From Candidatus Dormiibacterota bacterium (GTDB lineage: Bacteria; Chloroflexota; Dormibacteria; Aeolococcales; Aeolococcaceae): 64,000 bases of DNA. Below the pieces are notes generated by a model that was not told where the DNA came from, made no database searches, and saw only the letters and a list, made by a program, of their open reading frames with translations. The stretch is from assembly GCA_963748505.1 (NCBI GenBank), contig CAVVJH010000010.1, positions 24,765 through 88,764 of the forward strand, read 5' to 3'. A program made the position numbers and the translations under genes. Positions 34,365-38,661 of this stretch are shown one piece after another (the stretch's first letter is position 1; each line of letters begins with the position of its first letter).

Positions 34365-35099
34365 CTACTGCGTCGCAGCCACAAGGCGCGCTCGCAGCAA
34401 CTCGACCTTGGTCTCGTCGCCGCTGACGCTGACCGCCTCGATGCCGGTTCGCCCCCAGAGATACAGGAACACGTCCGCTGGTTCGCCGGTGAGCACCGCA
34501 TCCGCACCAGGTTGCTCGCCTGCTGCGACCTCCGTCGTCGCATCGCTGAGCAGCACCGACCATGACGAACCGGCCGCGATGACATGCACACTTCCCGCAC
34601 CGGGAGCTTCGGCCGCAGCCTCAGCTTCGTCGTCGAGCATGACCGTGAGGATTTCGTCAATGCCGTCGACGGCGAGCTGCTCGTCGATGGCGCTGCGCGC
34701 TCCGAACGGTGTCTCGACATCGACGCGATGCACGACCGTTTCCAAAGCCATACGACGGAACCAGAATCCAACAGTCTGATCGGGCGGCCACCACGTCCAT
34801 GCCGCTTCCGTGGGGTCATGTGCCTCGAGCTCGGCAAGCAGCTTGGCATGCTCATTGCGAAACCACTCGACGGTGTCCTGGCCATAGGGTTCATCGGTGA
34901 GCCATTCGCCGTCGACGGGTTGCCGCCCCAGACGAAGGGTCATCACCTTGTGGTCGTACACCATCGCGAGATGCGCCACCACCTCGCGCACGTCCCAGGG
35001 TGCGCATGCCGGCACCAGAAGGTCGAGCCCGCGAGGAGCAAGGTCGGCGACGATGTCACCGTCCTGCGTGATGTGCTGGAGATACCGCCGGGGCTCCAC
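34365..35099 (-). CDS. Maleylpyruvate isomerase (MDMPI/DinB-like) family protein
   Basis: VPACAPWDVREVVAHL; FWFRRMALETVVHRVD; LAVDGIDE; LYLWGR. Confidence 0.88.
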   Translation of the reverse strand: MEPRRYLQHITQDGDIVADLAPRGLDLLVPACAPWDVREVVAHLAMVYDHKVMTLRLGRQPVDGEWLTDEPYGQDTVEWFRNEHAKLLAELEAHDPTEAAWTWWPPDQTVGFWFRRMALETVVHRVDVETPFGARSAIDEQLAVDGIDEILTVMLDDEAEAAAEAPGAGSVHVIAAGSSWSVLLSDATTEVAAGEQPGADAVLTGEPADVFLYLWGRTGIEAVSVSGDETKVELLRARLVAATQ

Positions 35100-35102
35100 T
35101 GC

Positions 35103-37271
35103 CTATGCCGCTCCTCGCTTCGAGCTCACGTAGTCGACGAGCACGTAATCGCCCAGGCGATCGGGGCTGATGAAGAAGGCGCGACCGCGATTCAACCGGG
35201 TCATCTGATTGACGAACTGCACCAGGTGGTGGTTCGACTCCAGCATGAAGGTGTTGATGACGATGTTCTCCCGCGTGCATCGCTTCACCTCGAGCAATGT
35301 CTTGTGAAACGTCTCCGGCAGCGGCGGATAGAAGAACACCGGACGCCCATTCTCGATGTGTGCCGTCGGCTCCCCATCACTCACGATGATGATCTGCTTG
35401 TTCTCCCCCGGATCCCGTGCCAGCAACCGCCGGGCCAGCATCAACCCGTGCTGCATATTGGTGCCGTACACATACTCATTCACGGAAAGATGGGGCAATG
35501 CCGCCGGCTTGATCTCCCGTGCCAGATCCGAGAAACCGATGATGTGCAACGTATCTCGAGGATATGCACTGCGAATCAACGAGTCCAAAGCGAGTGCCAC
35601 TTTCTTCGCAGCATAAAAATATCCCCGAAGTGGCATCGACCAACTCATATCGAGCATAAGAACGGTCGCCGACCGCGTCAAAGTATCCGAGCGATGAACA
35701 ACAAAATCGTCAGGCGAAAGGCGAGGAACAGAACGCCGCGGACGAGACGATGCCAAGGCCGATGGGGACCCCGGCGGAGACGCCGTAGCCAGGGGAGGCG
35801 CCGGAGCCGGGGTCCCCTCGGCCGCAAGTCACGCGACTGAGTCAGCGTCGACGCGTACCTCGCTCTGGAGCGCAGCTTCGCGGCGCACAGCATTCATGAG
35901 CGTCTCGCGAACGTCCAGATCGAAGACGTCGCCGAATTCGTAAGGCTTGGTGTCCTCTTCGCGCTCGCCACCCTGCCCGTGACGAGAGACCGGGTGGTCG
36001 CCGAATCGGTCGCGGCGCAGTCGGGCGAAGAGGTCGCCGAGCGCCTTCTGACCGATGCGTCGCAGACCCCTGGCGGTGAGCTTCATGCCTTCGTCGTCGC
36101 GTTCGACGAGACCTCGCTGCTCCAGTTGATCGGTCATACGTTGCAGGCGTGACAGGTCGCGCGCCGCGTTCTCGCCAAGCACATCGCGCAACGCCTCCTC
36201 CGTCGGCGCATCGAGCGGCTCACCGCGATACATCCCGCGCAGCCCGCGTTCCAGCGCTTCGATGGATTGCAGGCGATCCATGACGCCCATCGCCTCGTCG
36301 AAAGGCAGTTGCTCGTTGCCGAAGAAACCATATCGCTGCCCCAGATGGCGGCGGTCGGAGAGCAATTCGAGGCCACCCATCAGCTCAGAGAGCTGCGCCT
36401 GCAGCTCCGGGTCGCCGAAGGTTGCGGAGATCATCTCCTCGAGCTGATGACGCATCTCCGGCGAGAGCGACTGCATCAGCGAGTCCATGCGGGCCATCTG
36501 TGCCGCGAGCTGCGCGAGAAACGCATCGAAGGTTTCCGGCGCATCGGGGAACATCGATCCCCACTTCTTGAGGAAGTCCTCGTAGTTGTGCTGCAACTGC
36601 GCGTCGGGAACGCCTTCGAGCTTCTGGCGCACCAGTGAGTTCAAATCGCGGGCCATCTCGCGCAGCGCCGCGATGTCCTGCTTGGACATCTGGCCCATCT
36701 GCTCGGACATCTGCTTGAAGTACGTGTCGACGACGTTCTGCTTGATCTCCTCGAGCAGCTTTTGAAAGGCCTGCTCCGCGTCCTGGTCCATGAACTCGTA
36801 GCCCTGCAGCTCGCGGATGACGCCACCCGGCTCCTGGGGAAGGTTCTCGAGCGTGTCGCGACGCTTCTTCGCGACCCGTTCCAGGATGCGTTGCGCACGC
36901 TCGTCGGTCGCGTTGGCGAGGCGTTCGTCGATGCCTTTGCGCTCGAGCCGCAGCACGTTGTCGAGCTTTTCCTCGATGTCCTTGAAGACGTTGTCGAGGC
37001 TGTATTTTTCGAGTTGCTTCTGGCGTTGCTTGCGCAGCCGCTCCATCAACTCCTCGAGGCCCGCGAACTTCTTTCCGTCGCGATCCCGCCAGCCCTGACT
37101 GAGCAGGCGGCGCAGCGCCGTCTCGAAATCCCAGCCGTGATAGACGTCCTCGCTCAGGCGGTCGAAGAGTGCATCGGCGTCATCGCCAAGCGGATCCTGA
37201 CTCCCGTCCCACGTGCTGAAGCGATGCTGTCGCGCAATCCGCCTCAGCTCGCCGAGTGGTTCATCCGCCAT
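35103..37271 (-). CDS. VWA-domain protein (partner of the chelatase-like AAA ATPase), with an in-frame UGA at 35829-35831 and a low-complexity insertion
   Basis: RFSTWDGSQDP N-terminus; LTARGLRRIGQKAL; PYEFGD..LDV..TL.NA; MIDAS DMSWSM; YGTNMQHGL; SDGEPTAH. ORFs 35829..37412 and 35103..35756 are in the same frame. Confidence 0.88.
35757..35823. repeat. Intragenic palindromic element (18-bp stem)
   Basis: GGCCGA(T)GGGGACCCCGGC at 35757-35775 pairs with GCCGGGGTCCCCTCGGCC at 35806-35823. Confidence 0.85.
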
Positions 37272-38661
37272 AGACCGCGCTTCCGTCGAGTGCGGTCTTG
37301 TTGAGACGCTTCCCGAGGTGCAGTCCTTCCAGCACGAATTCGAGCACCGCCACGCGCATTGCGTCGGAGTCGGGCTCGCCGAGACGCTGCCGTGCGCGCT
37401 CCACGCCGGCAAGTTCCGTCAGTGCCTGTGCGTACTGCGCGATCGTGTGCTGATCTCCCACCTCGACAGTGAAGCCGCCGTGGTCGAAGCGCTGCACCAG
37501 GTCGCTGAACTCCTGCACCGTGAAATGGCGGCGGAACACGTTGTTGCACGCGGTCCGCATCAGCTTCTCCAGCACGGCGCCGTCGTCCGCGTCCTCCCAG
37601 GTCTCGAGCTCGATCTTCCCGGCCGTCGATGACGTGAGCGCGGGCAGGTCGCTGATTCGCGCCACCGCCTCGCGCTCGCCGGTGCGCAGCGCGCGGCGCA
37701 ACGCTCCCGCCGCAAGGTTTTCGTAGTTCGCAGTCGTGAGCCGGACGGAGACACCGCTGCGCTGGTTCACCTGCGGATGCCGGCGCGCGACGTGGGAGAG
37801 CTCGGCAACGATCTCCTGCATGAAGCCGGGCACGGTGACCGGGACCGGCATGTCGTCGAAGGTCATGCGCTCCTGCTCGGCAATCGCGATCTCGTCGTCG
37901 ATGGTGCGTGGATAGTGGGTGCGCACTTGCGCGCCGAAGCGGTCCTTGAGCGGCGTGATGATGCGTCCGCGGTTGGTGTAGTCCTCAGGGTTCGCGGTCG
38001 CGACCACGAACACGTCGAGGGGCATGCGCAGCCGGTAACCGCGGATCTGCACGTCGCGCTCTTCCATGATGTTGAGCAGACCGACCTGGATGCGCTCCGC
38101 CAGGTCGGGCAGCTCGTTGATCGCGAAGATCCCGCGATTGGTGCGGGGAATCAATCCGTAGTGAATCGTCAGCTCGTCGCTGAGGTAGCGGCCTTCGGCC
38201 ACGCGGATCGGGTCGACCTCGCCGATGAGGTCCGCGATCGAGGTGTCCGGGGTGGCGAGCTTCTCTGAGTAGCGCTGCTCAGGCGTGAGCCACGCCAGCT
38301 CGGTGGCGTCCCCGTGGTCGGCGACCAGGTCGCGGCACCGCCGGCAGATCGGCTCGTAGGGGTTGTCGTTGATCTCGCACCCGGCGATCGCGGGGACGGC
38401 ATCGTCGAGCAGGCTGACCAGGGACCGGGTGAGGCGTGACTTCGCCTGCCCGCGCTCGCCGAGCAGGACCATGTCCTGGCCCGCGAGGATCGCGTTCTCG
38501 ATCTGCGGGATGACCGACTCGTCGTAGCCGCGGATGCCGCTGAACAGTCCCTCGTGGTTGCTGAGCTTGCGAATCAGGTTGCGTCGAAGCTCGGTTCTGA
38601 CAGGCAGCACGCGGTATTCCGCGCGACGCAATTCGCCGATCGTGGATGGAGCCTGGGACAT
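37261..38661 (-). CDS. Mg-chelatase subunit I-like AAA+ ATPase
   Basis: LGERGQAKSR; EKLATPD..ADLIG.VDP; NRGIFAINELPDL; TANPEDYTNRGRIITPLKDRFG. Confidence 0.92.
   Translation of the reverse strand: MSQAPSTIGELRRAEYRVLPVRTELRRNLIRKLSNHEGLFSGIRGYDESVIPQIENAILAGQDMVLLGERGQAKSRLTRSLVSLLDDAVPAIAGCEINDNPYEPICRRCRDLVADHGDATELAWLTPEQRYSEKLATPDTSIADLIGEVDPIRVAEGRYLSDELTIHYGLIPRTNRGIFAINELPDLAERIQVGLLNIMEERDVQIRGYRLRMPLDVFVVATANPEDYTNRGRIITPLKDRFGAQVRTHYPRTIDDEIAIAEQERMTFDDMPVPVTVPGFMQEIVAELSHVARRHPQVNQRSGVSVRLTTANYENLAAGALRRALRTGEREAVARISDLPALTSSTAGKIELETWEDADDGAVLEKLMRTACNNVFRRHFTVQEFSDLVQRFDHGGFTVEVGDQHTIAQYAQALTELAGVERARQRLGEPDSDAMRVAVLEFVLEGLHLGKRLNKTALDGSAVYGG

Follow-up and report, generated by a model that had tools for sequence, protein, structure and literature searches.

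An in-frame palindromic repeat and the C-poor silent-site stretch that follows it in a VWA-domain gene of a Dormibacteria genus

Palindromic repeats that lie in frame within genes are commonly regarded as neutral passengers in protein linkers. Among described systems, the Rickettsia palindromic elements (RPEs; Ogata et al. 2000, summarised in PMC10969869) are a dispersed palindromic repeat that also occurs in frame in unrelated housekeeping genes, where it lengthens the product by a peptide at a tolerant position and leaves the gene intact. The repeat described here resembles RPEs as outlined in PMC10969869 in being dispersed, palindromic and in frame in unrelated genes (a likeness of form and placement), but it is shorter (about 80 nt as opposed to about 150 bp), belongs to an unrelated host lineage and is mostly intergenic, at gene ends. 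The passages on RPEs in PMC10969869 make no mention of a silent-site shift downstream of the repeat, and a literature search for such a shift returned nothing relevant.

The RAYT-mobilised REP/BIME sequences offer another comparison, since they too are GC-rich hairpins, with many copies per genome, found immediately downstream of genes as well as between convergent ones. However, the present repeat is about 80 nt long, compared with 20-40 bp for REPs as described in PMC3733652, its loop core is oriented, and some of its copies are translated. The preliminary description of this DNA had pointed to a RAYT/IS200-like TnpA as a possible agent behind the element, but no match to the corresponding Y1_Tnp profile (PF01797) was found in any of five genomes of the genus (62-84% complete by marker count), which include the two with most copies; the same search was positive in 6 of 14 control genomes.

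Two further phenomena concern silent sites themselves. Transcription-associated strand asymmetry produces an excess of C-to-T changes on the non-template strand, and T and G do exceed C on the coding strand at this locus; here, in contrast, a single gene is affected over about 450 nt, G as well as T takes the place of C, and turnover is not raised. Rare-codon clusters at domain boundaries are linked to translational pausing, and the run of non-preferred codons described below likewise begins at a linker-domain junction, but only C-ending codons are lost, A-ending rare codons are not increased, and only the genus with the hairpin insert shows the run.

The locus lies in a window of 64,000 nt (the whole stretch of DNA analysed) from assembly GCA_963748505.1, here called G000. 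Its main features, in window coordinates, are as follows:

35103..37271, minus strand: VWA-domain gene of about 722 codons, MoxR partner, recognised by translation and broken by one in-frame TGA in this assembly
35829..35831, minus strand: in-frame TGA, where two small indels shift the conserved codons S-R-D-L-R-P out of frame (from alignment and reading frames)
35748..35830, minus strand: palindromic repeat copy of about 80 nt, with a 19-bp outer stem, a 3x3 internal loop, a 6-bp inner stem and an oriented loop core

The C-terminal part of the gene product matches VWA_2 (Pfam; E 1.4e-07), the upstream neighbour (37261-38661, minus strand) matches AAA_5, and orthologs of the VWA gene, mostly as a single open frame, occur in 39 of 41 relatives. 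The hairpin had been called intragenic on first description, which holds for the same-genus orthologs examined, where the linker with the hairpin is read through and the frame is intact, but not literally for G000, in which the TGA (35831-35829) stands just 5′ of the hairpin in the frame of the gene. As judged from the sequence, this TGA is probably an assembly indel error; one missing base falls in the outer stem of the G000 hairpin copy (column 19 of A1), and both the E2 acyltransferase gene and the ribosomal-protein operon are likewise split into several frames in this assembly.

The repeat copy is translated in frame as EGTPAPAPPLATASPPGSP and matches the covariance model of the family with 75 bits (G000:C10:60512-60590). 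Its perfect 12-nt arms occupy 35817-35806 and 35775-35764 of the minus strand, and the 101-nt hairpin stretch folds at -59.1 kcal/mol (z -4.0), a stability equalled by none of 200 shuffled sequences. Among copies, the arms are inverted repeats that vary with compensation: 93% of outer-stem cells are paired, 14 of the 19 pairs show changes on both sides, and 63 cells are changed on both sides, compared with 17.8 (sd 3.4) in shuffles, none of 500 of which reach 63, and 1-6 cells in slid controls. An exact search for the 12-nt arms had returned a single copy and misleadingly suggested a unique sequence, because the arms differ between copies; nhmmer and the covariance model bear out the earlier proposal that the hairpin is part of a repeated element.

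This family, and the in-frame position of some of its members, are direct observations. The repeat was detected in all 42 genomes of the genus that were searched, in 1-32 copies each, and 97 copies were located at 70 loci, representing 62 distinct flank groups. Across a draw of 101 genomes of the taxonomic family it was found in g1 (25/25), g18 (1/1), g16 (2/3) and g6 (1/4), and in none of 18 other genera. Most copies are intergenic, at gene 3′ ends; in-frame copies occur in unrelated genes, namely in the VWA linker, in both linkers of the E2 gene, in a helicase-like gene and in an Fe-S protein gene. G000 holds two copies, the second of which is in frame in a linker of the E2 gene (nhmmer E 2.6e-9). 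Several other identities were considered and rejected. Rfam gave no matches in 34800-36400; the loop CUUCAAA on a 5-bp stem is tRNA-like, but ARAGORN found no tRNA in three loci; no terminator-like site was found in 34900-36300, the bases after the stem being ATCGGCC, with no U tract; and copies about 6.5 kb apart in several genomes do not mark rRNA operons but lie between ordinary genes.

Downstream of the hairpin on the coding strand, a one-sided and strand-specific shift in silent sites had been counted by hand, and the counts were reproduced exactly: the 70 third positions of 35756-35547 comprise 30 T, 8 C, 25 G and 7 A, and the 76 third positions of 36059-35832 comprise 39 C, 19 G, 11 T and 7 A. 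Leu in the former stretch is encoded by TTG and never by CTG, and the bias has faded by about 35300-35250, as reported; the shift is therefore real. Against a background of 50,532 windows of 70 codons drawn from 1,666 long ORFs of the G000 genome, in which T at third positions averages 7.1 (sd 3.3), at least 30 T is reached in 13 windows, and the T/(T+C) of 0.79 at 35756-35547 is unmatched, the maximum being 0.739. The sole look-alike inspected (contig C1, bases 194-1463) is spurious, being read out of frame across a gene junction. The shift sets in sharply at the linker, where GC falls from.665 to.53-.58, and decays gradually over about 450 nt without a second sharp border. In a set of 2,328 codons from EF-Tu, EF-G and ribosomal proteins, those ending in C are enriched; they are the preferred class in highly expressed genes, so that the C-poor stretch doubles as a series of non-preferred codons. 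Avoidance of Rho-loading sites, which would likewise call for C-poor RNA, was dropped because no Rho gene was found in five genomes of the genus, two of them single-contig (PF07497 in 0/5; TIGR00767 at best 42.9 bits, with a cut-off of 509).

The shift is common to all 24 other VWA orthologs of the genus (25/25 with G000) and absent from all 27 orthologs of other genera, none of which carries this element in the VWA linker; both are direct observations. Specifically, among 60 third positions T occurs 11-23 times in 18 orthologs of the genus and 26 times in G000, compared with 1-7 times in 10/10 sister-family orthologs and 17/17 published loci of other genera. Across the 24 orthologs, T/(T+C) is.41-.66 over 35740-35441 versus.07-.31 upstream, while A/(A+G) is unchanged and A at third positions does not rise. 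As all 24 share it, the shift is long-standing and maintained, as opposed to the product of recent mutation in G000. Two regions differ in what replaces C:

35501..35740, minus strand: region B, proximal part of the shift, where C at third positions gives way mainly to T (from the composition of 4-fold and 2-fold sites)
35261..35500, minus strand: region C, distal part of the shift, where C gives way to G at 4-fold sites and to T at 2-fold sites (from site composition)

The 4-fold sites of region B show T.20, C.20, G.53 and A.07 in the genus (24 orthologs) versus T.05, C.39, G.52 and A.04 in outgroups, with T at 2-fold pyrimidine sites.56 versus.18. In region C the 4-fold values are T.06, C.19 and G.71 versus T.04, C.39 and G.52, T at 2-fold pyrimidine sites is.50 versus.09, and TTG makes up 38% of Leu codons versus 2%, with Ile ATC still at.94. 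The original label of a C-to-T shift is thus apt for the one-sided loss of C and for its replacement by T over the proximal 240 nt or so, but over the next 240 nt or so the replacement is mostly G.

The association with the hairpin is less uniform than that with the genus. One ortholog of the genus (G024) has lost the hairpin and keeps a typical shift (T14 and C15 among 60 codons of region B), a finding that speaks against the mutator proposed in the preliminary description, for which T-rich codons in orthologs free of the hairpin had been named as counter-evidence. Other-genus linkers L040 (-128.8 kcal/mol) and L058, for their part, carry other large hairpins and show no shift.

The preliminary description had also anticipated the same oriented skew at other copies, which is seen in part. 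Flanks of the 62 other, mostly intergenic, copies are nearly flat (C.335 upstream versus about.31 downstream), and two other in-frame copies, both in G120, show no shift (T/(T+C).19 to.10 at L101 and.21 to.16 at L100); the covariance model finds hits at the L101 site only in G120 and G010, and this insertion therefore looks young. A weaker shift does follow in-frame copies in the E2 gene. On the 3′ side of the G000 copy, seven 20-codon bins range from.33 to.75 in T/(T+C), versus 0-.20 in the lipoyl domain, and in the 15 E2 genes of the genus with an element in linker 2 the median over the first 80 catalytic codons is.33, versus.18 in the rest of the genes. One genus E2 gene without the element, L177, stands at.11; L154, in which the model detects no linker-2 element, nevertheless reaches.33, and in the g18 genome, where both E2 linkers carry elements, the flanking domains are little shifted (PSBD.08; first 80 catalytic codons.22). 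Near outgroups are already at.16-.21 in the same E2 segment, which makes this a weak replicate. Very few independent events connect the hairpin with the shift, namely one insertion in the VWA gene and one or a few in E2.

These observations bear on whether the two features are merely neighbours. A genus-specific run of non-preferred codons could mark the start of the VWA domain (e.g. as a pause for N-terminal folding), with the hairpin sitting by coincidence in the adjoining tolerant linker. The onset at the domain boundary, the non-preferred status of the codons, the shift in G024, the unshifted in-frame copies of G120 and the unshifted linkers of L040 and L058 would all fit. Coincidence does not readily explain why the shift accompanies the VWA-linker element in 25/25 cases and appears in 0/27 published orthologs elsewhere, why in-frame copies in a second gene are followed by a similar, weaker shift that is missing from L177, or why A-ending rare codons are not raised, and this reading is judged possible but on the improbable side.

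A mutational origin was the first explanation put forward for this DNA, in the form of local deamination or an element-linked mutator. In a wider form of this idea, the hairpin would stall ribosomes or polymerases, and the coding strand, exposed in an R-loop, a transcription bubble or a stalled fork, would lose C (by deamination) and G (by oxidation) to T. In keeping with this, the shift is strictly confined to the coding strand, starts at the element and decays. Minority states of the G>T type increase 11-fold in 35740-35501, from 0.14 to 1.58 per site, which could also be explained by damage to single-stranded DNA. At the residue that separates the MIDAS serines, CGG>TGG (R to W) arose in two non-sister genomes, and a third has a TGA in this position (in the VWA gene of the near outgroup G055, from g18, the MIDAS segment was not found in the stretch examined). 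A C>T rate raised 11.5-fold predicts T.13-.17 and G.52 at 4-fold sites, and with T.17, C.26 and G.52 it resembles region B.

The same model is unlike region C, however, where C at 4-fold sites turns to G and not to T. Furthermore, the rate test, which uses nine sister pairs only and assumes equilibrium and equal divergence times across regions, counts 22 C/T differences in region B versus 76.7 expected under a C-to-T mutator and 30.6 with unchanged exchangeability, and 8 in region C versus 16.3 and 6.2, respectively. Unchanged turnover is also observed directly, with 4-fold divergence in the nine pairs of.320 upstream,.323 in B and.284 in C, and with exchangeabilities (U/B/C) of.96/.69/1.24 for s_CT,.42/.45/.57 for s_CG and.40/.47/.54 for s_GT. 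Minority states of the C>T type per C site rise from 1.72 to only 3.0 in B (1.7-fold) and change 0.9-fold in C, and T>C counts fall by half, from 6.3 to 3.0-3.3 for each T site. Together with the near-flat flanks at the 62 other copies and the five genomes in which no Y1/HUH transposase was found, these results fail to support local deamination or a mutator linked to the element, since turnover between sister species is not raised and C is also replaced by G; local strand-specific mutation is regarded as unlikely. A broader version, in which translated copies cast a strand-specific mutational shadow that turns C (and G) into T over hundreds of bases and the rate test is misled by saturation or local constraint, would amount to a repeat-linked local mutator acting within genes, and is judged distinctly unlikely.

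The stretch could also be the relic of a past event, e.g. of the replacement of the C-terminal part by DNA of a lower-GC donor, or of one burst of damage at insertion, and be slowly reverting. The sharp onset at the linker and the accompanying fall in GC are compatible with such an origin. Yet the absence of a rise in A at third positions means that there is no symmetric GC-to-AT shift, and the change tails off gradually instead of ending at a second sharp border. Reversion would, moreover, give mostly T>C minority states, but these are near-balanced (24 T>C and 21 C>T in region B, which indicates equilibrium there; 20 and 19 in region C), and 4-fold differences involving C are.153-.184, compared with about.235 if reversion proceeded at normal rates (a hand calculation). 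A relic is therefore considered highly improbable.

The explanation preferred here, put at evenly balanced between right and wrong, is that an RPE-like repeat lies in frame and that the C-poor stretch downstream of it is kept by selection. The repeat would have been inserted in frame, in the genus ancestor, into the disordered linker that joins the N-terminal region to the VWA domain. A stable state may then have been reached in which, over roughly 450 nt on the 3′ side of the translated hairpin, silent sites disfavour C on the coding strand and thereby in the mRNA: T would stand in for C at sites where the amino acid permits T or C alone, G or T at sites where any base serves, and TTG would substitute for CTN in Leu codons. 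A fixation bias against C (S=1) models the 4-fold sites of region C as T.04, C.20 and G.69, close to the data (.06/.19/.71), although S differs by site class (about 2.4 at 2-fold and about 1 at 4-fold sites) and one coefficient does not fit both. Both selection as the keeper of the shift and the hairpin as its reason are what we infer from this pattern. The likeliest mechanism might, tentatively, be compensation for a very stable translated hairpin, in that (i) ribosomes could be slowed just after the hairpin, or (ii) the downstream RNA could be kept free of C-rich partners for the G-rich arm.

What sets this locus apart is that a single in-frame repeat is tied to a long, one-sided and strand-specific change of silent sites that is held across a genus. 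Were the link causal, codon choice over about 150 codons of a host gene would be reshaped by a stable translated hairpin, and the genus would offer a natural experiment on the mutual constraint of mRNA structure, translation and codon usage. A cautionary point is that a clean one-strand 'C-to-T' pattern can arise by fixation bias and not by deamination.

Overlapping genes were considered within the shifted stretch and rejected. On the same strand, the other two frames contain scattered stops and no conserved peptide. On the opposite strand, a 418-aa ORF (34584-35840, plus strand) is, judging from its coordinates, the codon-for-codon antisense frame, and it is disrupted in orthologs that use TCA (e.g. 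L015). One further feature was recorded in the T-rich stretch:

35653..35681, minus strand: promoter-like TTGACG-17-TATGCT, by consensus match only (1 found versus 0.2 expected)

The T's that form this promoter-like motif are partly private to G000.

The codon shift lies in a VWA-domain gene that adjoins the gene for an AAA_5 (MoxR-like) ATPase, next to a palindromic repeat element in the linker of the gene. The segments concerned are as follows.

37271-35103, minus strand: VWA-domain gene, an ORF with a product of about 722 residues and the VWA domain at the C-terminus
35748-35830: hairpin, a copy of the element, in the linker
35740-35501: region B, 3′ of the hairpin on the coding strand
35500-35261: region C, also 3′ of the hairpin on the coding strand

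The third-position counts of the preliminary description proved exact on recount, both in 35756-35547 (30 T, 8 C, 25 G, 7 A) and in 36059-35832 (39 C, 19 G, 11 T, 7 A). The long ORFs of the genome under study (G000; 2.79 Mb, 66.8% GC), 1,666 in number, were scanned in 50,532 windows of 70 codons. The mean was 7.1 T-ending codons per window (sd 3.3), and none of these windows matched the T/(T+C) of 0.79 in 35756-35547, the scan maximum being 0.739. The single look-alike window inspected was an out-of-frame artefact.

Counted over 60 codons from VPRL, T-ending codons number 26 in G000, 11-23 in 18 same-genus orthologs (one of them, L020, frameshifted inside the counted segment) and 14-17 in three additional genus loci; upstream, G000 and the same-genus set have 4-12 of 72. 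The sister family, whose orthologs have no linker insert, shows 1-7 T and 20-31 C in 10/10 orthologs with almost the same amino acids, and other genera of the same family show 1-7 T in 17/17 published loci, some of which have different large linker hairpins. Among other genera, L040 (genome G068; −128.8 kcal/mol over 210 nt) and L058 (G044) have large hairpins at this place in the linker that are unrelated to the element, with no codon shift downstream. The mean T/(T+C) of 24 orthologs is.07-.31 ahead of the linker, then.53,.43,.66,.41,.49,.25 and.48 down to 35321, and.17-.27 beyond, while A/(A+G) does not rise across the linker; these relatives are non-independent samples, and many of their assemblies have indel errors. 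The hairpin has been lost in G024, the sister of G000 (linker of 31 residues, no match to the element model there), and the shift is retained (14 T, 15 C). One unpublished locus (L055, from G042) entered some comparisons; the key outgroup figures were recomputed without it, and none of the conclusions rests on unpublished genomes.

The shift had been described as a one-sided change from C to T. The loss of C at silent sites holds, but a plain C-to-T change does not, since G gains at 4-fold sites in region C.

Silent-site composition in 24 genus orthologs and six published outgroups
Region B (35740-35501), genus: 4-fold T.20, C.20, G.53; 2-fold Y, T share.56
Region B (35740-35501), outgroups: 4-fold T.05, C.39, G.52; 2-fold Y, T share.18
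Region C (35500-35261), genus: 4-fold T.06, C.19, G.71; 2-fold Y, T share.50
Region C (35500-35261), outgroups: 4-fold T.04, C.39, G.52; 2-fold Y, T share.09

Among leucine codons TTG makes up 28-38% in the genus versus 2-3% in the outgroups, and CGC is replaced by CGG, GGC by GGG and AGC by AGT. As highly expressed genes (2,328 codons) are enriched in C-ending codons, the shifted stretch is a run of non-preferred codons.

A local C-to-T mutator, as proposed in the preliminary description, is disfavoured by the rate data. Had only C>T mutation risen, 76.7 C/T differences would be expected in region B and 16.3 in region C, versus 22 and 8 observed. Across nine independent sister pairs, divergence upstream, in B and in C is.320,.323 and.284 at 4-fold sites and.194,.260 and.219 at 2-fold Y sites, and the exchangeabilities are the same in the three segments (s_CT.96/.69/1.24, s_CG.42/.45/.57, s_GT.40/.47/.54). 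With C>T raised 11.5-fold, a rate model predicts T.13-.17 and G.52; with a bias of S=1 against C it predicts T.04, C.20 and G.69, near the observed region C. At conserved sites, minority C>T states per C site are 1.72 upstream, 3.0 in B and 1.58 in C, minority T>C states per T site go from 6.3 upstream (only 3 sites) to 3.0-3.3, and T>C and C>T states occur about equally often (24 vs 21 in B, 20 vs 19 in C). Three findings count against a clean selection account: (i) G>T minority states are up 11-fold in region B, (ii) no single coefficient fits both 2-fold and 4-fold sites and (iii) Ile ATC is unaffected in region C. Coding-strand C is lost at silent sites over about 450 nt 3′ of the hairpin across this genus and not in other genera, with turnover unchanged; we infer that selection maintains this shift and that the translated hairpin causes it.

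The hairpin itself is real, folding at −59.1 kcal/mol over 101 nt (z −4.0), and belongs to a dispersed palindromic repeat, of which it is an in-frame copy. An exact arm search found one copy in G000, and a profile search added a second outside the window (contig C13, 39700-39778; L061:900-979), located within an E2 acyltransferase gene, where it is read in frame in the linker that follows the lipoyl domain; the peptide of this copy, GTSAPAPPLATSPP, is nearly that of the VWA copy, and the E2 reading frame breaks directly after it and again ahead of the catalytic domain. A covariance model built on 23 copies matches 42/42 genus genomes searched (1-32 copies each). In a draw of 101 genomes from the family, it matches 25/25 of the same genus, 1/1 of genus g18 (12 copies), 2/3 of g16 and 1/4 of g6, and none in 18 other genera. 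Copies have a common oriented loop core, and their arms vary yet remain complementary: among 22 VWA-linker copies, 14/19 outer-stem pairs show changes on both sides, with 63 such cells versus 17.8 (sd 3.4) after shuffling (0/500 shuffles reach 63) and 1-6 in slid controls. Because the paired changes give different amino acids, it is the hairpin that is conserved and not the peptide. Most of 62 distinct copy sites have no ORF through them. The element resembles the in-frame palindromic repeats (RPE) of Rickettsia, likewise dispersed palindromes read in frame and already known there according to PMC10969869. The suggested link to RAYT found no counterpart, no Y1/RAYT transposase being found in 5/5 genomes.

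In the one multi-copy locus inspected (L103), copies are placed just after genes, between convergent ORFs. If the host lacks Rho, gene-end copies of the element might act as terminators. Several genomes have copies at a spacing of about 6.5 kb (L103, at 1494, 8061 and 14733; L125, L129, L137, L142, L114, L133); in L103 the three copies are flanked by ordinary ORFs, which converge on two of them, and no rRNA lies between the copies. Tandem copies occur in L095 (three within about 260 nt) and L098 (two, 125 nt apart), and the element is partially duplicated inside the VWA linker of L014 and L034. The commoner type (e.g. L062:1501-1580) has an inner 5-bp stem and a 7-nt loop, CUUCAAA, and so is shaped like an anticodon arm, UCA being mid-loop; ARAGORN called no tRNA in three element loci tried.

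The preliminary description asked for the same oriented skew at other copies. Around the 62 distinct ones, most of them intergenic, the flanks show almost no skew, with C on the element strand at about.335 upstream and.31 downstream and T/(T+C) at.30-.35 and.34-.375, a small difference that gene orientation could explain. In-frame copies differ from each other.

T/(T+C) before and after in-frame copies
VWA gene, G120:.23 before;.55, then.42 after
E2 linker 1, L086:.23 before;.53 after
E2 linker 1, G000: 0-.20 before (lipoyl domain);.33-.75 after (seven bins)
E2 linker 2, genus (n=15): median.18 in the rest of the same genes; median.33 (.13-.57) in the first 80 catalytic codons
Helicase-like gene, L101:.19 before;.10 after
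Fe-S protein gene, L100:.21 before;.16 after

In element-free E2 genes from other genera the median is.07 (n=18), and a genus locus without the linker-2 copy (L177) has.11. This replicate is weak, because a genus locus with no linker-2 model match (L154) is at.33, near outgroups are already at.16-.21 and the shift is slight in a g18 genome that has two E2 copies. At the helicase-like-gene site the model matches G120 and G010 alone, which suggests a young insertion. The tie of the shift to the element rests on few independent insertion events. As a leading guess, avoiding C would make translation slower or less structured just after a very stable hairpin. A literature search on shifts of codon usage next to in-frame palindromes gave no relevant result, which does not prove absence.

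Among other candidates, avoidance of Rho loading fails, as two models found no Rho termination factor in any of five genomes (G000, G120, G011, G019 and G074), two of them single-contig; for an intrinsic terminator, no terminator-like U tract is present, and neither strand has a conserved ORF that would make an overlapping gene.

In the G000 assembly an in-frame TGA (35831-35829) comes before the hairpin, and two small indels, separated by about 13 nt and one of them within the outer stem, shift the conserved codons S-R-D-L-R-P out of frame relative to orthologs. The E2 gene is split over three frames, the ribosomal-protein operon, EF-Tu and neighbours (contig C13, 1-16000; contig C3, 1-6000) are broken into many short frames, and EF-Tu is additionally interrupted at two contig ends. 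Indel errors seem to be numerous in this assembly, consistent with its marker completeness of 61.6%, and the TGA and indels of the VWA gene are probably such errors rather than marks of a true pseudogene. Most orthologs have R (CGG) between the two MIDAS serines (DMSWSM, codon 35638-35640); G000 and the genome of L014, which are not sisters, have W (TGG), and L009 has a TGA stop. A promoter-like TTGACG-17-TATGCT (35681-35653, minus strand), a sigma-70-like consensus match inside the T-rich stretch, points downstream and is the sole match of its kind in 34900-36300, resting partly on T's private to G000.
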